IMG/VR virus record: IMGVR_UViG_3300017991_000052
Length of the DNA stretch: 64,000 nt
Strand: one strand, 5' to 3'
Source of the DNA: a virus
Part shown: positions 43,469 through 64,000 of the stretch, piece by piece
Position numbering within the stretch: position 1 is the stretch's first letter
Layout of the letters: each line of letters starts with the position of its first letter
The notes under the pieces: generated by a model
Database searches by the model: none
Seen by the model: the letters and a program-made list of their open reading frames with translations, nothing else
Told to the model about the DNA's origin: nothing
Program-made: the position numbers and the translations under genes

Positions 43469-43927
43469 ATGCGGGTTATGGCGATAGATCCTGGCAGCAA
43501 TCAAATTGGGATTGCTGTATTTAAAGGAAAGCGTTTATTAAACAGTGGAACATTTGAAGTTATTAAAACAGATTTGGCTTACTCAAAGTTATTATACATT
43601 CATAACCTTATTAAAAGTGCTCTATCTATCCACTATCCTGATATTATAATTATTGAATCATTAAAAAGTATGAGAAATGCTAAAACAACAAGAATTTTAT
43701 CAGAAATTATAGGAGCAATTAAACTTACAATAATATTAGATAATAAAGTGTACGATGAGGTTCATCCTAAAACAATGAAAAAAGTTATTACTGGTAATGG
43801 AAATGCGGATAAAGAAATGGTAAAAAAAGTTATTATAAAAAAATTTAAAAAGAAAAAAGATATTAGTTATGATGAATCTGATGCAATAGGACTTGGATAT
43901 ACTTATATAATTAATAATGACAATTGA
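43469..43927 (+). CDS. ruvC: Holliday junction resolvase RuvC
   Basis: IDPG...G, IIE, P...KK..TGNGNADK..V, DESDA. Confidence 0.9.
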   Translation: MRVMAIDPGSNQIGIAVFKGKRLLNSGTFEVIKTDLAYSKLLYIHNLIKSALSIHYPDIIIIESLKSMRNAKTTRILSEIIGAIKLTIILDNKVYDEVHPKTMKKVITGNGNADKEMVKKVIIKKFKKKKDISYDESDAIGLGYTYIINNDN

Positions 43928-45724
43928 TATTAATATTAAATGTGATGAATGTAATGAAACTTTAGAAAATGATGACAAGGTTTTTTGTTATAAATGTTTT
44001 AAAGAATATGCAGAAAAAATAGAAGAATTAGAAGAACAAGTAGAAGAGTTAGAAAAAGAAGTTGCTCAAGTAAGATCAGAAGTTGAAGATGAAGAATATG
44101 AAAAATATCAATTGCAAGAAGAATATGAAAAATTAGAATCAAAATATGAAGAATTAACAATTGATTATGGACAATTAGAAAGAAGTTTAGAAAAAACGCA
44201 AATAGTAGATGAAAGTGTATAAGGTGAAAATATGAGAGAAATATCTGAAGTAGATAGTTTTTTACAAACAATGGGACCTGGAAAATCAAGAATTCCAGTA
44301 GTATATCCAGCTAGATCATCATCCGTAATTATTGAGGATGGGATAAAAACAGATTTAACAAGAAAAATGAGATATGAACGCGGGAGAGATGTTATTTTTA
44401 AATGTCTTGATTGTAATGATATTATAGGTCAAGGAAAAGAAACTACAGATAATAGAGATCAAGTAAAAATATATTGTTTTAAGTGTAGGAATTATCATAT
44501 AGCAAATGGAGCTCTAATATGGAATCAAAATCCTTTATGGCATAAACCAGAAGAAGGAAAACAAAGACAAGATTATGAAAAATTAATGGAAGAATATATT
44601 AAAAATAATAAGCCAAAGGTGGTTGGTATATAATGGGATGTTTTGATACATTACTTTTTACATGCCCTAAATGTGGGAAAAAAGATGCTATATATGAACA
44701 ATTAAAACCAGATATTTATGGGATGGAAACATTTAGAGATAAAGAAATACCAGATCCACTTATTTTAATGTGCAAAGATGATGAATTTGTATGTTCTGAA
44801 TGCAGTACATGGTTTAGATTAAAAGTAAAAAGTAAAATTGAATGGAAATTAGTTAAGATGAGAAATCAAAATGGATAATGCTGTGCAACCATGGATTGCA
44901 TTAATATATATAGTACCAGCATTAATTTTATGTGGAGCATTAGCATTCTTTATTATGAAGATGATAAAACCTTTTACTAAATTTCTTGAAGAAAGGGGGA
45001 AGAGCCACGACATTGTGACCCCACCAATATTTCCACAAGGCCTTGTATGGCCATTTCAGCAACCAAACTCTTCCCCTCAAGAAATAAAAAAAACAAAAGA
45101 AGAAATAGAAAAAGAAGAATTACAAAAATTTGAAGAACGTAAAGCACAATTTATAGCTCCAAATATAAAAAAGAAAGTAAAAGTTAATTTTGATAATTTG
45201 GGAGAAAAAATTGTTAGTAGCAGTAAAGATGTAAATAAAGCAGTAAAATACTTAAAAAAAAAGAAAGGTGAAAAGTAATGAGAAAAGAAATAACAAAAGG
45301 ATTTGAACAATTAAGAAATATTGTTTTAGAGTCTTCTTTTGATCAAAAAAGCGACTTGGCTGATGATATAACTGATTTAGAATTTAAATTATTAGATATA
45401 GCTAAAAAATATCGTGATGATATACGCGATAAAGTAATGTCTATTAGAGAATCTTATCGTCCAATTAGAAGCCAAGTTGAAACTATTTCAAGAGCTTGTG
45501 ATAAAGCTGAAAAATGTATTAGGGATTGATTATGAATGATAAAAACATATTGGATTAATTGTAAACATTTTTGTTGTAGTGCCGATGTTGAAAATGGTAT
45601 AGTAATAGATTCTGCTCCAATTATTAAATGGGGTAAAGGGAAAAAAGTAATGGATGTTATAGATTTTTATAGAAAAAAGGGATCGTTAATAAATTATACA
45701 ATTTTAGAGGGAGAATATGAGTAG
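43917..45724 (+). other. Run of six small hypothetical genes (Zn-finger, coiled-coil, membrane)
   Basis: ORFs 43917-44222, 44232-44633, 44633-44878, 44871-45278, 45278-45529, 45536-45724, several translationally coupled. Confidence 0.6.
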
Positions 45725-48922: not shown

Positions 48923-49490
48923 AAAAGAAATAGCTTTTATTTATAATTCTAATAAAATAGAACAGATTATGTATCCCCTTAAGGAATATTCTAAAGATCC
49001 AGATAAATCAGATCCTCATGTTGGGGGGCATATAAAAGCATTTTTATATATGAAAGAGAATTGTAAAAAAGATTTAACTGAAAAAGATATTCTTATAATG
49101 CATAGGCTTTTAACAAAGGATATTTTACGTCCAAAAGACAGCGGTGCATATAGAACTTGTGCTGTTTATATTAGCGGCAGACAAGCTCCTATGTATTATT
49201 CTGTAAAACCAATGATGGAAACTTTAATAGAATTTGCAAAAAGAGTTGGTTATGAGAATGATATATGGAATGTACATCATGAATTTGAAATTATTCATCC
49301 ATTTGTTGATGGGAATGGTAGAACTGGCCGTTTAATTCTTAATTGGCTTAGATTTAAAAATGATCTTCCATTAGAAATTGTTCTATATAAAGATAGAATG
49401 GAATACTATACATCTATTGAAAAATATAGAATAGGTAAAATAGTAAGTAAAAAATTGGGGGAATTGAATGGAGATAAGGCATTATATTGA
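48909..49490 (+). CDS. Fic family protein (AMP transferase)
   Basis: Canonical HPFVDGNGRTGR motif; SNKIE. Confidence 0.92.
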   Translation: MKLNKKEIAFIYNSNKIEQIMYPLKEYSKDPDKSDPHVGGHIKAFLYMKENCKKDLTEKDILIMHRLLTKDILRPKDSGAYRTCAVYISGRQAPMYYSVKPMMETLIEFAKRVGYENDIWNVHHEFEIIHPFVDGNGRTGRLILNWLRFKNDLPLEIVLYKDRMEYYTSIEKYRIGKIVSKKLGELNGDKALY

Positions 49491-50842
49491 TGATATAGAT
49501 GAAAAATTATTCTTTTCTAAAAAGAAAATTAAAGATGAATTTACTAGAATAGCGGCAAATTTATGGATTCAATTTGGTGTTGATTTAACAAAAAATAAAA
49601 CTGGTAAAAAATATAATGTGACAGATTTTATTTGGTCTACTAAAGCAAAAAAAAGATTTTATGAATTAAATTTTGATATAATTGATAAAATGAGAAAAAA
49701 ACAACAATATGGTTGGTTTATTTTACAAGTAGAACCAAAAGATGAAACAGCTAATGAAGCAAGAAATATATTTGAAGAAATAGAAGAAGAACAAAGAAAA
49801 TATTTAAAAAATAAAAAAAAGATAAATAAATATAAAATAACAGAAGAGAGTTTATGAAAAAAAGAATTAGAAAAGAAAAAGATGTTTTTATTCTTCTTAA
49901 TGAAGATTATGCAAAAAGCATAAAAAAAATAATCAATAAAAAAATTAGACAATCTAATAGAACCTTAAGAAGAGATAGATTTTATCATGAAGAATTAAAT
50001 GAATTAATAGATAATAGAAAGTGGTCTTGGTTAAGAGAACGAAGAGTGACTCCGGAATATGATGGAGAATCTGTTAGTAGAGCACATAGAAGAATGTATG
50101 TACATGGGATAAATGATATTTTAAAGTGGTTAACAAATCAAATAGCATCTGATAAAGATATTGATGTTATTTCAATAAAAAACGAATCATTATAAGGAGG
50201 AAAACAATGATAATTTACAATGATTATAAAGAGAATGATTTTTATGTAAATGTTGATAAAATTAAAGGAAAAAAAATAATTATCAATAATGTAAAAGCTA
50301 CTGCAAAATTAGTAGATTTTATGGATAAGAATTGTGATAAATGGTGGTATTGTGTTAAATTATATAAAGGTGAAGAAAATTTAGCTAAAGAAGTAGAATT
50401 AATTCATGATCTTGCAATTAAAAATATTGCAGTAGATGCTGAGAATTATACAGTTGAAGGACAATCATATATGGAATATTCATCTAAATTTGGGGATAAT
50501 GTAAGAAAATTATTAACTTTAGACGGAAAAGCAAAAGAATTAATATTACTTCCCGAGAATTTAGGTGGGGATAGATATAAAAATTATGATAAATTCGCAT
50601 ATGCTTTAAAACCAAAAGCAATTTTAATGGAGCGCACTTATCAACAACCTGAACCATGGAATATGTTTTATTATTATTGGTTAAATAAAATACGTTATTT
50701 CTTTTTATTTCCAATTATATATTTAGGTGTATGGCCAGAAGAAACTACAGGCGGATGGGCCGACAAGCAAATGGAAACAGCAAAATGGATTGCAGGAGAT
50801 AAAATTTTTTGGTATAGCGAAACAAAGAATATGCCTAGTTAA
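49468..50842 (+). other. Three hypothetical genes
   Basis: ORFs 49468-49857, 49854-50195, 50207-50842. Confidence 0.55.
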
Positions 50843-56368: not shown

Positions 56369-58582
56369 ATGCCCAAAAAACTTAAAGTCGTTAAAAAACA
56401 ACGAAAAACATCAGATACCACAGATTTATCTTTAAATGTCGAATCTCTTTCAGAATATGAAATGATTACCGAATGGGATAGAGAACGTGTTGTTGAAAGT
56501 TTAAAAAAGGAAGCCAATATTGGAGAAAAATTAGCAAATAAAATTGCTGATACAATTGAAGATAAATTATTAAAATTAGAAGTCAAAAAAGTAACAACAG
56601 ATTTTATTAGATCTTTGATAGATGAAGAATTATTGATAAGAGGCGAAAAGAAAAAATTATTAAAACAAAAATCTCTTTCAATACCTACTTATGATTTAGA
56701 ACAATCTCTTTTTAGTAAAACAAATGAGAATAGTAATGTTCAGGCAAATAATCCTGAAGCAGTTAATATGTTTATTGCTGAAAGCGTTTTAAAACAATAT
56801 GCTTTAAACAGAGTATTTTCACAAGAAGTATCTAATGCTCATTTAGAAGGGGAAGTACATATTCATGATCTTGGGTATATAACAAGAACATATTGTAGTT
56901 CTCATAGTTTAGAATATATAAAAAAGTATGGATTAAATCTTATTAATCTTTCAACTAAATCTGCTCCACCAAAACATGCATTAACTTTAACTGGTCATCT
57001 TAATACTTTTTTAGCAAGTATACAAGCTTATTATGCGGGAGCACTTGGGTTAGGATTTTTAAATATTTTTTATGCACCATTATTAATTGGAATGGGGATA
57101 AAAGAATTAAAACAACAAGCTCAATATTTGATTTTTAGTTGTTCACAAAATGCATTTAGTCGCGGTGGACAAACCTTATTTATTGATTTTAATATTCATT
57201 TAGGAATACCAACTACTTTAAGAAATGTTCCTGCTATTGTAAGAGAAGGTAAATATTGCAATGAGATTATAATTGAAGATGATCATTTTAATGAATATTG
57301 TAAAGATGAAAAAGGATATCGAAGAGTAATGAGAGATGAAGAATCATTTCGTCGTGATTGTTGGATTTTGACTCCCGAAAGAAGAGAATTAACTCATGAA
57401 GAGATTTTAAAATATTATGAGTTATTTCCATTAAGTTATACGCCAACTGAGACAATGGCTGATTTAATAAGACAAAAAAAATATAGAGTAAAATTATTAA
57501 CTTATGATGATTTTGAAGTTCAAGCTAGAGCTTTTGCATTAGCATTAATGAAAGTATGGCATGAAGGGGATTTTAATGGAAGTATTTTTCCATTTCCTAA
57601 ATTTGATTTACATATAAATCAAGAATGTTACGATAATCAAATTCAACGCGATGCTTTAATGTATGCATGTGAAATGGCAGCAGATAAAGGAATTCCATAT
57701 TTCTTTTTTGATAGAAGTGAAACCCAACTTGCTCAATGTTGTAGATTAAGGGAGACAGTTAATGATATGAGTATGTTAGAAATGCCTGAAAAATTAAGAT
57801 TTACTGGATTTCAAAATGTTACTATTAATTTACCTCAATGTGCTTATCGAGCAAAAGGTGATCTAAAGAAGACTATTGAAGAAATTAAATATTGTATGGA
57901 TATTGCCATGAAAGCGCATGAACAAAAAAGAAAATTTATACAAGCTTTAATGGAAGATGAACATCGACCAATGTGGCAAGTTGGTAAAATTTCATTAGAT
58001 GGTGAAAGATATGTAAATTTAGATAAAGCTACTTATATTATTGGAGTAATTGGATTAAATGAATGTGTGAAAAAAATAATAGGTAGCCAATTACATGAAT
58101 CAGATGAAGCATATAAAATGGGTATACAAATTATTTCTCATATGTATTCTTATACTAAAAATTTAGCTAAAGAATATGAAATGAAAGTTGTTTTAGAAGA
58201 ATCACCAGCTGAAAGTGCGGCTGCGAGATTGGCAAAAATTGATGTAGTTAAATATGAAGAAGCTAAAGATTATGTTAAAGGAAATCAAGAAAATGGAGAT
58301 ATATATTACTCCAATTCTGTTCATTTTGCAGCAGAAGCAGACATTGATATTTTAGAAAGAATTGAAAAACAGGGGAAATTTCATCAATTGATTGAAGCTG
58401 GGGCTATTACTCATGTTTTCTTAGGGGAACAAAGACCAACTAAAGAAGCTATTTTTAATTTAATAGAAAAAACATGGAGTAATACACAAACTGCGCAATT
58501 AACTATAAGCCCAGAATTAATTGTATGTCATGATTGTGGAAGAATAACAAGGGGATTTTCATCTGAAGACGAAGAAGAATAA
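56369..58582 (+). CDS. nrdD: Class III anaerobic ribonucleotide reductase, large fragment (ATP cone; lacks the glycyl-radical tail)
   Basis: NENSN, H..G..HIHDL, RGGQ, FPK, QCCRL, VTINLP, EESPAES, YYSNS; ends after the first CxxC. Confidence 0.9.
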   Translation: MPKKLKVVKKQRKTSDTTDLSLNVESLSEYEMITEWDRERVVESLKKEANIGEKLANKIADTIEDKLLKLEVKKVTTDFIRSLIDEELLIRGEKKKLLKQKSLSIPTYDLEQSLFSKTNENSNVQANNPEAVNMFIAESVLKQYALNRVFSQEVSNAHLEGEVHIHDLGYITRTYCSSHSLEYIKKYGLNLINLSTKSAPPKHALTLTGHLNTFLASIQAYYAGALGLGFLNIFYAPLLIGMGIKELKQQAQYLIFSCSQNAFSRGGQTLFIDFNIHLGIPTTLRNVPAIVREGKYCNEIIIEDDHFNEYCKDEKGYRRVMRDEESFRRDCWILTPERRELTHEEILKYYELFPLSYTPTETMADLIRQKKYRVKLLTYDDFEVQARAFALALMKVWHEGDFNGSIFPFPKFDLHINQECYDNQIQRDALMYACEMAADKGIPYFFFDRSETQLAQCCRLRETVNDMSMLEMPEKLRFTGFQNVTINLPQCAYRAKGDLKKTIEEIKYCMDIAMKAHEQKRKFIQALMEDEHRPMWQVGKISLDGERYVNLDKATYIIGVIGLNECVKKIIGSQLHESDEAYKMGIQIISHMYSYTKNLAKEYEMKVVLEESPAESAAARLAKIDVVKYEEAKDYVKGNQENGDIYYSNSVHFAAEADIDILERIEKQGKFHQLIEAGAITHVFLGEQRPTKEAIFNLIEKTWSNTQTAQLTISPELIVCHDCGRITRGFSSEDEEE

Positions 58583-58607: not shown

Positions 58608-58748
58608 ATGGTAAAATGTAAGGAATGCGGATCAACAAATGTGAGTTTATTTACAAGAATTGTAGGATATTTTAGTAATATTAAAGTTTGGAATAAGTCA
58701 AAGAAAGAAGAATTAAATGCAAGACAAAAAGGGAATTATAAGTTGTAA
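58608..58748 (+). CDS. Stand-alone NrdD C-terminal glycyl-radical domain (46 aa; not in ORF track)
   Basis: MVKCKECGSTNVSLFTRIVGYFSNIKVWNKSKKEELNARQKGNYKL; own SD GGGGGTGA. Confidence 0.88.
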   Translation: MVKCKECGSTNVSLFTRIVGYFSNIKVWNKSKKEELNARQKGNYKL

Positions 58749-60626: not shown

Positions 60627-60842
60627 ATGGCGAATGTACGTTTCTACAGACTAGGCGGAGATCCAGTTGACACAGAAATCACAGAGAAGATGACAGTTAG
60701 AGCAGCACTGAAAAAGAGTGGAATCAAGTACCAAGAAGGTGATGAAATCCGGGTACAGAACAGCAAAGTTGATTTAGACACAATGATCACTCCTGATCAG
60801 GCACAGTTTGTTACTGCGATCCCGAAAGTACGAGGAGGTTAA
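60627..60842 (+). CDS. Ubiquitin-like (beta-grasp) protein
   Basis: 71 aa, beta-grasp pattern (TV..AL...G, IRV....VD.D...I), C-terminal VRGG; strong SD AGGAGGTGA. Confidence 0.88.
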   Translation: MANVRFYRLGGDPVDTEITEKMTVRAALKKSGIKYQEGDEIRVQNSKVDLDTMITPDQAQFVTAIPKVRGG

Positions 60843-60916: not shown

Positions 60917-61537
60917 ATGGCAGTAAAGTTAAGTGAAGCAAAAGAACAAGAAAAATATGTTGAAATTTGTGCAATGAGGCATAAAGTTCAAGTTAAAAAT
61001 CTTAAAGAGAAATTAAAAAAAATTGAAAAAGAAACTGCAGATGCTAGTAAGCAATTAATGCTGTTTGTCCGCGCGGAATCTGATACTAGAGAACAACTTA
61101 ACGCGCTCGAGGAAGGCTTTGAAAAACATAAAAATAGATATCAAGAAGAATTTAAAGCTTTAAAAGCTTTAGAGAATTATGAACATATTGATATAACTGA
61201 AATACATGGAAAAGCAGCTCTAATTGGTTATACAGATGAAATTCAAATTGAACATGAAGGCGATATTTATAAAATTGGTAAATTTAGAGTTACAGTTCAA
61301 GATGCACAAATTTTAATTGAAAATATAACTAATAAGAGAAATGGATGTGATCATCCTCATGTTAGAGATGGTCGACCGTGTCTTGGGGATTTAGGCTCAA
61401 CTTTACCAAAATTAATGGGTAAGCATGAATACGCTTTAGTTTTTAATGTTGTTTATAAATACTTAACAAGTTATAATAAGCAAAGTCCTTATCAAAAAAT
61501 TGAAGCTTGGACAAAAAGCAGAAAGAAGGCAAAGTAA
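60917..61537 (+). CDS. Prokaryotic E2 (UBC-like) conjugating enzyme with N-terminal coiled coil
   Basis: HPHVRDGRPCLG corresponds to UBC HPN(I/V)..G.(I)CL, with Cys155; residues 1-85 coiled coil. Confidence 0.8.
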   Translation: MAVKLSEAKEQEKYVEICAMRHKVQVKNLKEKLKKIEKETADASKQLMLFVRAESDTREQLNALEEGFEKHKNRYQEEFKALKALENYEHIDITEIHGKAALIGYTDEIQIEHEGDIYKIGKFRVTVQDAQILIENITNKRNGCDHPHVRDGRPCLGDLGSTLPKLMGKHEYALVFNVVYKYLTSYNKQSPYQKIEAWTKSRKKAK

Positions 61538-62100
61538 TGTTACAAGTTATTTTTAAAGAAAAGGCTATTAAAAAAATTGAATATTTTACCCAATTGGCTC
61601 CAGGAGAAATTTCTGGATTAGGTAAAGTAGAAAAACAAGGTGATAAATTTATTATTGAAGATGTTTACTTACTTAAACAAACAAATTCTGCAGCTTATAC
61701 AGAATTAGATTCTGAAGCAATTAATGATTTTCTTATTGATATGATGAGTAAAGGAGAAGATCTTTCTAAGATAAAGTTATGGTGGCATACTCATGCTAAT
61801 TTTTCTGTTTTTTGGAGTGGGACAGACAAAGATACAATAGATAAATTTGCAAATGAATCTTATTTTATTTCTTTAGTAACAAACAAAGCTGGAGATTATA
61901 AAATTAGATTTGATTTTCACGCACCGGATAGACTGACATTTGATGATATTCCTCATGTAGTAGATTTTACAGATGATAATGATCTAAAAAGACAATGTGA
62001 AGAAGAATTTAATCAAAAAGTTAAAACTAGATTATATTGGGATGAACAGCCGCAATATGTTGAAAATAATGAACAAGAAATTGTGGAGCATGTAGTATAG
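61537..62100 (+). CDS. JAB/MPN+/JAMM metalloprotease (deubiquitinase-like)
   Basis: E24 plus H-T-H-x7-S-G-T-D, an exact JAMM motif; TAATG coupling to E2. Confidence 0.9.
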   Translation: MLQVIFKEKAIKKIEYFTQLAPGEISGLGKVEKQGDKFIIEDVYLLKQTNSAAYTELDSEAINDFLIDMMSKGEDLSKIKLWWHTHANFSVFWSGTDKDTIDKFANESYFISLVTNKAGDYKIRFDFHAPDRLTFDDIPHVVDFTDDNDLKRQCEEEFNQKVKTRLYWDEQPQYVENNEQEIVEHVV

Positions 62101-62118: not shown

Positions 62119-62784
62119 ATGTCAGATGCACAAAGATTTTGGAGACAATTAGATATTGTCGATAGTGATAAATTAAATATCCCAATTACTATTATTGGAG
62201 CCGGCGCAATTGGATCATTTACTTGTTTAGCATTAGCTAAAATGGGATGTTCTAATATTACAGTATATGATATTGATAAAATTGAAGATTATAATCTACC
62301 AAATCAATTTTATAGAGAAAGTGATGTTGGTAAATTAAAAGTAAATGGGCTTTATGATCTTATAAAAGATTTTACTGGAGTTAAAATAAATATTAAAAAT
62401 GAAAAATATAAAAAACAAAATGTTGAAGGAATAGTTATATCTGCAGTTGATAATATGGAAACAAGAAAAGATTTATGGAAAAAAGTTGAATATAATCCTC
62501 AAGTAAAATTATTTGTAGATGGACGCATGGGCGCAGAAGTCATGAGAATTTATACTGTAAAACCTCATGATATAGATGAAGTAAAGATATTTGAAGATAA
62601 TTTATATACCGATAAAGAAGCTGCAGAAGAAAAATGTACAGAAAAAGCAATTATATATAATGTAACTGTAATAGGAGGTTTAATTGCTTCTAATATTAAG
62701 AAATATGTAATGGATCAAAAATATATAAAAGAAATAATATTTGATTTAAAAAATCTATATTTATTAGCGAGTGAAACAAAATAA
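62119..62784 (+). CDS. E1-like ThiF/MoeB-family activating enzyme
   Basis: R..RQ, IIGAGAIGS, D.D.IE..NL.NQ, VG..KV, AVDN..TR, DGRMG, candidate catalytic Cys173 (EKCT). Confidence 0.92.
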   Translation: MSDAQRFWRQLDIVDSDKLNIPITIIGAGAIGSFTCLALAKMGCSNITVYDIDKIEDYNLPNQFYRESDVGKLKVNGLYDLIKDFTGVKINIKNEKYKKQNVEGIVISAVDNMETRKDLWKKVEYNPQVKLFVDGRMGAEVMRIYTVKPHDIDEVKIFEDNLYTDKEAAEEKCTEKAIIYNVTVIGGLIASNIKKYVMDQKYIKEIIFDLKNLYLLASETK

Positions 62785-63118
62785 TGTTATGTCTAAAAAT
62801 AAAAAACTTGATAATGTATTACTTGAAATAGCGAAAAAAAAGGAGCTAATTGCAAAGATAAACACAATTAATTATAATAGTTTTGAGAAAGATGCTTCTA
62901 AAGTTATAGATATTCTTCCTCAATTGACTAATAATGATGATTTTAAAGTATTAAATGTGTTTAATGTTGATAAAAAAGTACAGTATAAAAAATATAGCTT
63001 ATATAAGAAATTTAATATATTTATGTATATTGAAGGATTTAAAAGGGCTTTAGAAATAATGGGTGAAACTTTTATTAGTGATGCAATAAAAGATGATTTA
63101 TATGAACAATCAATATGA
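62771..63118 (+). CDS. Hypothetical protein in the Ubl operon
   Basis: Overlaps the E1 stop; start may be GTG 62771 or ATG 62789. Confidence 0.55.
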   Translation: MKQNNVMSKNKKLDNVLLEIAKKKELIAKINTINYNSFEKDASKVIDILPQLTNNDDFKVLNVFNVDKKVQYKKYSLYKKFNIFMYIEGFKRALEIMGETFISDAIKDDLYEQSI

Positions 63119-63384
63119 GTGATTATGTAATTGGGATTTTAAGTAATGAATTAGATAAATTAAAAACAATAGCATCACGACTTGAGGGCGAATTAACAGA
63201 ACATGAAGTATATGCTAATCAAACGAGGGATAGTTTAATATTAATAAGGCAAGCTATTAAAGAAATTGAAGATGAATTAAAAGGAGAATATATAGAACTT
63301 AACGAAGGAGTATCACCGATATCGTTACTTAAAATAAGTGAAATTATAAGAAAAGAAAATAATATATCGGAGGAAAGTTTATGA
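63115..63384 (+). CDS. Small coiled-coil protein
   Basis: ATGA coupling on both sides. Confidence 0.55.
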   Translation: MSDYVIGILSNELDKLKTIASRLEGELTEHEVYANQTRDSLILIRQAIKEIEDELKGEYIELNEGVSPISLLKISEIIRKENNISEESL

Positions 63385-64000
63385 GTTTATGTCAAGAATG
63401 CGGTAGAAATGAAGCTCAATATACTGCAATTTTTAATGTTAATGGCCAAGATATTCAAAAGCCAGTATGTGAACAATGTTATAATAAACTTCAATTAAGT
63501 GTTGATGACGCCACAAAAGAAGTATATCATAAATTAAGCGAATCTACAAAATTAGTAATTTATTATGCTCGCAGACAAGCAAGAGAACGAAGACATAAAT
63601 TTGTTTTAAATGATCATTTAGTTTATGGTATAATTTTAGAGAATGGAACTGGATATTCGACATTAGAAAGTGCTGGAGCAAATGTTGACCAATTAAAAGG
63701 GCAAATTGATTGGGCTTTAAATTCAGTTACTGATCTAGTACCTAGAAATAGTGGAGAAGAGCCTCAATTATCAGATGAAATAAAAGGCACTTTAAAAAGA
63801 TCTCTTGAGATTATTAATAAAATAGAATTTCCAGAAATAGAACCTGAACACATATTATTATCTATTACAGAAGATAGAAATTCAGCAATATCTAAAAATT
63901 TAAAAAGAAATTTTAATATTGATACAATAAAACTTTTAAGAGAATTAGAATCTCAATTACCAGAGTCAGTAGATCTCGTTAAAAAATATAAAGAAAATGA
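63381..64000 (+). CDS. Clp/Hsp100-like protein N-terminus (C4 Zn finger plus two Clp-N repeats), 3' truncated; not in ORF track
   Basis: MSLCQECGRNEA...NVNGQ....VCEQCY (CX2CX22CX2C), then LSESTKLVIYYARRQA...DHLVYG and LSDEIK..LKRS...IEPEHILLSI; frame open to the window end. Confidence 0.8.
   Translation, partial: MSLCQECGRNEAQYTAIFNVNGQDIQKPVCEQCYNKLQLSVDDATKEVYHKLSESTKLVIYYARRQARERRHKFVLNDHLVYGIILENGTGYSTLESAGANVDQLKGQIDWALNSVTDLVPRNSGEEPQLSDEIKGTLKRSLEIINKIEFPEIEPEHILLSITEDRNSAISKNLKRNFNIDTIKLLRELESQLPESVDLVKKYKEN

Follow-up and report, generated by a model that had tools for sequence, protein, structure and literature searches.

A ClpC-type unfoldase with a predicted zinc finger is encoded beside a ubiquitin-like conjugation cassette in two phages

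A 64,000-nucleotide stretch of DNA from a large, uncultured phage (hereafter the window; bases 76592-140591 of the 152,375-base IMG/VR virus record IMGVR_UViG_3300017991_000052, CheckV completeness 85%) carries at its downstream end a conjugation cassette for a ubiquitin-like protein (Ubl), which runs into an open reading frame (ORF) that we identify from its sequence as a complete phage class-I Hsp100 unfoldase of the ClpC type. The cassette, a small ORF and this clpC-like gene form a real and unusual gene block, which we also found in a second, diverged phage. An initial annotation of the window, in which only the first part of the clpC-like gene is visible, had proposed that Ubl-tagged proteins could be delivered to its product and perhaps to host ClpP. 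We read the gene past the window edge in the same record (locus L002; window position = L002 position + 59408). The features of the block are:

60627-60842, + strand: putative Ubl, 71 amino acids (aa), C-terminal RGG with no cap.
60917-61537, + strand: E2-like protein, 206 aa, with the motif HPHVRDGRPCLG.
61507-62100, + strand: putative JAB/JAMM peptidase with an HxH-x7-S-xx-D motif; public gene calls start it at ATG 61537.
62119-62784, + strand: E1, a ThiF-family adenylating enzyme, 221 aa.
62771-63118, + strand: small ORF 1, 115 aa from GTG 62771 or 109 aa from ATG 62789, C-terminus YEQSI.
63115-63384, + strand: small ORF 2, 89 aa, with ISEESL, the full form of a tag described below, as its C-terminus.
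63381-64000, + strand: 5' part of the clpC-like gene, aa 1-206 of 843; the gene runs to the equivalent of 65912 (L002 3973-6504).
63390-63479, + strand: predicted zinc finger of the ClpE/McsA type within the clpC-like gene (C4, C7, C30, C33).
63567-63950, + strand: divergent Clp_N double repeat within the clpC-like gene, ~aa 63-190, from Pfam Clp_N and an alignment to the ClpC N domain.

The clpC frame is still open at the last base of the window, 64000, and closes beyond it as a complete ORF of 843 codons with the Pfam domains AAA, AAA_lid_9, AAA_2 (E 2.4e-63) and ClpB_D2-small. The initial annotation had taken the protein for an Hsp100 unfoldase whose AAA+ modules lay out of view, and had noted that an ORF ending without them would speak against its proposal; both modules are present downstream. 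The first (D1) has its Walker A motif at residues 258-265 and Walker B at 328-333, and the second (D2) has Walker A at 581-588, Walker B at 651-659 and the pore loop GYVGY. All these Walker motifs are intact, as are the pore loops of the two modules and the sensor-2 motif. The best solved match was Bacillus subtilis ClpC (aa 50-830 aligned, E 4.5e-218, 730 bits), followed by ClpB, ClpC1, ClpE and ClpA, and since the full ORF matches ClpC at this level its features are not a product of chance. Within D2, the residues IGF at 705-707 align with the VGF ClpP-docking loop of B. subtilis ClpC, and a docking loop of this kind (IGF/LGF) is what had been suggested as a check. Two AAA+ modules, a Clp_N double repeat and an [L/I/V]-G-[F/L] loop in D2, as in class-I Hsp100 proteins of the ClpC type, are thus all found, and we regard the predicted identity of the gene and the presence of the ClpP loop as solid. 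In ClpC a coiled-coil M-domain binds MecA and forms the resting state; in the phage protein the M-domain between D1 and D2 is ~16 residues shorter than that of B. subtilis ClpC, judging by alignment gaps, and the protein ends with the D2-small domain, with no C-terminal extension.

By its sequence the protein is a hybrid: its finger is of the ClpE type, its N domain and core are of the ClpC type, and it has a ClpP loop. The finger and the two Clp-N repeats described by the initial annotation were both recovered: the four cysteines, C4, C7, C30 and C33, can be read directly as CX2C-X22-CX2C, and Pfam Clp_N matches in two stretches (E 2.2e-12) that align to the ClpC N domain. The earlier comparison with ClpE also stands, as aa 3-43 align to aa 2-42 of Enterococcus faecalis ClpE (29hb_b, E 0.0022); the same residues align to the first finger of McsA (8wtb_B, E 0.0037), and Pfam DUF7685 matches the finger below its cut-off. 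We class it as a ClpE/McsA-type finger that is predicted to bind zinc. The ClpE finger binds zinc via C3, C6, C29 and C32 and is homologous to N1 of ClpG; this zinc module aids the binding of misfolded or aggregated substrates, and ClpE needs no adaptors (PMC13125188). With a Clp_N double repeat behind its finger, the phage protein cannot be classed as a ClpE. Membership of ClpG/ClpK was rejected as well, with 715 bits to the NCBIfam ClpK model and 673 bits to the ClpG model against cut-offs of 1900, and with an IGF loop present.

We found the N-terminal region to be highly diverged. A word-based search with aa 1-210 returned the protein itself only, and a HMMER scan of these residues against 1.84 billion representatives gave 922 Clp_N hits, among which finger and N domain together were covered by P0004 only (62% identity). 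The best 80 viral matches to the protein in IMG/VR were all at most 50% identical, none aligning to the first 42 residues. No other example of an architecture running from finger through Clp_N to ClpP loop appeared in the searches made. Structure prediction added little: the AF2 (AlphaFold 2) model of aa 1-210 (predicted local distance difference test, pLDDT, 46) and that of small ORF 1 (pLDDT 52) were too poor for a fold search, and a complex prediction of the two, made from two-row alignments with no controls, scored 0.00, which is no answer and is neutral. Small ORF 1 had no family match in profile searches.

P0004 belongs to a second phage, present on four contigs from three samples. Its gene order, combined from two contigs, is Ubl (68 aa, ending NGG), E2, JAB, E1, a small ORF of 117 aa and the finger-ClpC gene, with the same overlaps; all four finger cysteines are invariant. 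Identity between the two phages is 47% for the Ubl, 57% for E2, 48% for JAB, 69% for E1, 34-37% for small ORF 1 and 66-69% for ClpC. The 117-aa ORF overlaps clpC by ATGA. Of the two small ORFs that the initial annotation had put forward as candidate adaptors, ORF 1 is thus kept directly upstream of clpC, whereas ORF 2 is absent from the relative. The acidic residue that precedes the conserved His of each Clp_N repeat, presumably a phospho-arginine contact, differs between the phages (D/A and E/V). The surroundings have changed on both sides: upstream, the relative lacks the NrdD, NrdG, HD and HAD genes, and on the downstream side come a Band_7 gene and orphan ORFs, with a sigma-like gene after 3 kilobases (kb) rather than 15 kb. 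With both flanks changed and the proteins only 34-69% identical, the comparison indicates that the six genes Ubl-E2-JAB-E1-small ORF-ClpC are inherited as a unit.

Codon 301 of the relative's clpC, which falls on a conserved Gly in the pore-loop region of D1, reads TGA in two samples (L113 2632-2634, and L114) and GGA in the third (L195 4518-4520); the TGA splits the gene into ORFs of 300 and 507 aa. Genetic code 25, in which TGA encodes Gly, was considered and rejected, as the ATGA overlap in the relative keeps TGA as a stop and another sample has GGA. It is also countered by the phage of the window, where TGA terminates 14 of the 33 ORFs that carry the tag described below. On this sequence evidence the TGA is a nonsense variant, not a recoded codon.

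The arrangement of the block was as first described, with E1 followed by two small overlapping ORFs that lead through ATGA junctions into the ORF at 63381. Both overlaps can be read directly, at 63115-63118 (small ORFs 1 and 2) and 63381-63384 (small ORF 2 and clpC). The start of small ORF 1 is ambiguous: GTG 62771 overlaps E1, and public gene calls use the in-frame ATG 62789. On the + strand, neither the stretch from the operon to clpC nor the bases just behind clpC contained a terminator-like site. A 155-aa ORF follows clpC, and the next credible terminator comes after it; one weak 6-pair match lies within clpC itself. The promoter and terminator scan as a whole yielded no more sites than shuffled sequence. 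Given the ATGA overlaps and the lack of a + strand terminator-like site between operon and clpC, the cassette through clpC is likely to be one transcription unit.

As for the cassette, its E1 is a predicted adenylating enzyme, as in Bil-like cassettes, with matches to Pfam ThiF (E 8.4e-20), phrog_15670 (E 2.3e-26) and PADLOC E1-E2 models (down to E 6e-12). The JAB protein has, besides its HxH-x7-S-xx-D motif, a PADLOC JAB match (E 2.5e-4) and a weak Pfam Prok-JAB match below threshold (E 0.089). Neither the Ubl nor E2 had a profile match, and a word-based protein search with E2 found only E2 itself. The Ubl, with its putative beta-grasp fold, ends in Gly-Gly in both phages (RGG here, NGG in the relative), and the E2 motif HPHV..G.PCLG is conserved with the same spacing in the relative and in two other phage contigs; the UBC fold and catalytic Cys of E2 are putative. 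The same genome encodes a second E1, MoeB/ThiF-like and unrelated to that of the cassette (242 aa, L002 11905-12633 beyond the window; Pfam ThiF E 5e-45). It adjoins a CCA-adding enzyme ~3 kb downstream of a tRNA cluster and may have a role in tRNA modification.

We then asked how often such cassettes and Clp genes meet in other viruses. An IMG/VR scan with the single E1 protein returned nothing, and an E1 alignment used as query returned 18 IMG/VR loci with related JAB-E1 pairs (27-42% identity), several of which also have the E2 motif and encode a Ubl whose C-terminal GG is followed by a short cap. No Clp gene (AAA_2) was present in any of these 18 other phage records, either in the flanks or in the whole record, five of the records being at least 90% complete. 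Conversely, the E1 family phrog_15670 was absent from all 50 whole Clp-bearing viral records searched. Clp ATPases as such are already known from phages, with the family phrog_4871 and a gene in jumbo phage Atu_ph07 (PMC6102473), and occur on 565 IMG/VR contigs. Co-occurrence of cassette and unfoldase across genomes, as expected of a Ubl-dependent unfoldase pathway, was not seen, and since each is absent from the wider records of the other, the pairing is specific to this lineage of two phages. The initial annotation had named a consistent lack of Clp genes beside Ubl operons as a sign against its proposal; such a lack holds in 18 of 18 other phage records and fails in the one close relative, which has the whole block. 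In other phages (L084 39-3564; L091, L092, L093 and L099) both E2 (357-584 aa) and JAB of the Ubl-E2-JAB-E1 cassette are much larger, and the Ubl ends in GG with a one- to two-residue cap (G-NI in L084, where the cassette lies just ahead of genes read as replication genes).

We searched the whole phage for a protease partner of the unfoldase. Other public contigs carry the same phage, one of them 180,493 bases long, and its genome is a circle of ~179.8 kb (31% G+C), closed by walking along a 91-kb ENA contig that supplied the 28 kb absent from the 152-kb record. The clpP gene that had been suggested as a check was not found: there is no CLP_protease match in the 152-kb record and none in the Pfam listings of the other 28 kb. 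PDZ_2 and ClpS likewise had no matches in the 152-kb record. In a phage without clpP, host ClpP is the inferred partner, and with the IGF loop present the earlier suggestion of host ClpP is a plausible one; VGF loops dock both ClpE and ClpC onto ClpP in cryo-electron microscopy structures (PMC13125188). We propose that hexamers of the phage ClpC-like protein would dock on the host ClpP barrel, that its phage-specific N-terminal region would pick proteins, and that the motor would feed them to host ClpP, the outcome being a phage-owned substrate selector for the host protease. We consider docking on host ClpP fairly probable. Moreover, because clpC shows translational coupling to the cassette and a conserved small ORF, and the six genes are inherited as one block, its product probably works in the process that the Ubl-E2-JAB-E1 cassette serves.

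Several points weigh against this proposal. Overlapping, co-directional genes are the norm throughout the phage genome, so coupling alone is weak evidence for a shared function, and the TGA at codon 301 in two samples suggests that clpC of the relative may be dispensable. The evidence for predicted ClpP binding is a three-residue motif and its alignment, and nothing more, while the short M-domain and diverged N domain could alter regulation unpredictably. An attempt to derive host or donor from ClpC similarity failed, the best bacterial ClpCs being spread over many phyla and all 42-52% identical to the phage protein.

A further candidate signal for substrate choice lies in the phage's own proteins. 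Across the whole phage (G000 plus L110 and L112), the last three residues are [E/Q]-S-[L/I/V/M] in 33 of 306 ORFs, whereas the frequency of this tripeptide inside proteins would predict 0.45; the usual form of this tag is hydrophobic-x-[D/N/E]-E-S-[L/I]. The tagged ORFs are all 41-176 aa long, and a single block behind a sigma-like gene (L110 7214-17226) contains 26 of them; examples within the window are at 43917-44222, 49468-49857, 49854-50195, 62771-63118 and 63115-63384. TGA, TAA and TAG all follow the tag, which marks these as true protein ends. The last two examples are the small ORFs upstream of clpC (YEQSI in ORF 1, SEESL in ORF 2), and their tags make this a rival candidate substrate signal. 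None of 12 genes checked in the relative was tagged, and the small ORF of that phage ends in KGDTI.

Three readings concern the choice of substrates, of which recognition of the Ubl and recognition of the tag are each compatible with the explanation we prefer, that of a phage-owned selector for host ClpP. The cassette may conjugate its Ubl to target proteins, in which case the ClpC N-terminal region, alone or via the conserved small ORF, would recognise the Ubl and unfold the conjugate into host ClpP, with JAB recycling the Ubl. The retention of the block in both phages between different flanks, the ATGA overlaps, and the confinement of the finger and Clp_N N-terminus to this lineage, always beside the cassette, all point this way. 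Yet neither the 18 other JAB-E1 phage records, several with the E2 motif, nor the 50 Clp-bearing viral records repeat the pairing; the relative's clpC has a nonsense variant while its Ubl genes are intact; this type of finger binds misfolded or aggregated proteins, not Ubls (PMC13125188); and we identified no Ubl-binding element in ClpC. Direct tagging and degradation by this route is therefore doubtful, and we regard the hand-off from Ubl to ClpC as unlikely in itself. A self-contained phage pathway, in which the cassette would mark chosen proteins (e.g., host defence proteins) and the zinc-finger ClpC, perhaps via the small ORF, would pull them into host ClpP, is similarly improbable.

Alternatively, the unfoldase and host ClpP might clear the phage's own small, mostly early-block proteins by reading the [E/Q]-S-[L/I/V/M] end, so that the two tagged upstream ORFs would be substrates, competitors or adaptors and the Ubl cassette a neighbour with a separate job. 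The excess of genuine tagged ends, their concentration in one block, their presence on both ORFs directly upstream of clpC and the lack of an encoded PDZ_2 or ClpS reader in the 152-kb record fit this idea, but host ClpX or another factor could see the tag instead of ClpC, and in the relative small ORF 2 is missing and the remaining small ORF and the genes checked are untagged; we give it little credence. General quality control is a tentative possibility with a little more to recommend it, in which the protein, as a disaggregase or as an unfoldase and whether or not ClpP takes part, would work alongside a phage HSP20 protein to keep phage proteins soluble, with no specific signal, and adjacency to the cassette would reflect inherited gene order. 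Zinc modules of the ClpE/ClpG-N1 type are tied to misfolded or aggregated substrates, ClpE is free of adaptors (PMC13125188), and many large phages have Clp ATPases without Ubl genes (phrog_4871; 565 viral contigs; Atu_ph07, PMC6102473). Such a small heat-shock protein of the HSP20 family is indeed present (L110 18283-18735), and it and the Clp unfoldase resemble a small proteostasis kit, although the HSP20 gene lies ~25 kb beyond clpC. What quality control leaves unexplained is why the block is kept while both flanks change, and why residues 1-210 have diverged so far that only one relative turns up among 1.84 billion representatives.

ClpC of Bacillota (B. subtilis ClpC/MecB, Staphylococcus aureus), which forms the ClpC-ClpP protease, shares with the phage protein the Clp_N double repeat, two AAA+ modules, the position of the M-domain, D2-small and a [V/I]GF loop. 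The phage protein differs in its added N-terminal zinc finger, its ~16-residue-shorter M-domain and its strongly diverged N domain, and its gene is phage-encoded with no mecA, mcsA/B or clpP alongside. With ClpE (E. faecalis ClpE-ClpP, PDB 29hb) it shares the CX2C-X22-CX2C module, residue for residue, and a ClpP-docking loop. By published description, however, ClpE is without a Clp_N domain and has a disordered linker after the finger (PMC13125188), whereas the phage protein has the full double repeat, and its AAA+ core scores 589 bits to ClpE (aa 213-818) versus 730 bits to ClpC. ClpG/ClpK of heat-resistance islands resemble it in an N1 zinc domain followed by a Clp_N-like N2 domain, in two AAA+ modules and in a small heat-shock gene in the same genome, but alignments to them begin only at aa 51-53, and the phage protein carries an IGF loop and lacks a C-terminal extension; a passage of PMC13125188 that cites Lee 2018 presents ClpG as a disaggregase that stands alone.

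The cassette itself recalls the Bil (BilABCD) anti-phage operons in its Ubl-E2-JAB-E1 set and order, the Gly-Gly end of the Ubl and the HPx...PC(L) signature of E2. It differs from them in being carried by a phage and not a defence island, in its small proteins, in matching only generic E1 and JAB models of PADLOC, and in leading on to a small ORF and the gene of a Clp unfoldase; the Bil preprints make no mention of Clp. Pup-Mpa-proteasome and SAMP/ubiquitin-Cdc48/proteasome systems are similar in concept, in that a small protein tag system is encoded next to an AAA+ unfoldase which supplies a self-compartmentalised protease with substrates. Here, in contrast, the N-terminus of the unfoldase has no homology to Mpa or Cdc48 receptors and coupling to the Ubl is putative. 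Takeover of Clp-dependent proteolysis by a phage has a precedent in SPO1 Gp53, an adaptor-like protein that retargets host ClpCP (PMC6873191); SPO1 brings an adaptor for host ClpC, whereas the present phage brings the unfoldase itself. We found no report in the literature of a phage Ubl cassette linked to a Clp unfoldase.

Other parts of the genome are of note in their own right. A tblastn search of INPHARED found no close phage, and several short, unannotated top "phage" records in it may be host DNA. Upstream of the cassette, the anaerobic ribonucleotide reductase NrdD is divided between two ORFs: one of 737 aa (window 56369-58582) ends just past one CxxC pair, and 25 bases on another, of 46 aa (58608-58748), carries a second CxxC pair and an RIVGY motif that we take to be the glycyl-radical site. 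Both ORFs match Pfam NRDD in public gene calls. Beyond the window, ~0.85 kb after clpC, 12 tRNA genes are clustered at L002 7356-9123 (Ala, Gln, Gly, Glu, Ile, Trp, Asp, two Arg, Phe, Cys and Val). Further on, the RtcB RNA ligase gene (L002 14768-16375) is split into parts of 132 and 282 aa by a 251-aa ORF that we read as a homing endonuclease, making an intron or the insertion of a free-standing endonuclease likely.

A Ubl cassette and an unfoldase with a predicted ClpP loop, kept as one block in two diverged phages, offer a clonable six-gene system for the study of Ubl function. Supplying an unfoldase, rather than an adaptor, would be a distinct route by which a phage takes over host proteolysis. 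Ubl conjugation in bacteria has been considered unlikely to be a degradation signal (PMC11601603); if marking by the cassette does lead to ClpC, the block would be a counter-example to that view and a viral counterpart of ubiquitin-proteasome or Pup-Mpa degradation. Tagging followed by unfolding or degradation thus becomes a testable idea in a virus of bacteria.

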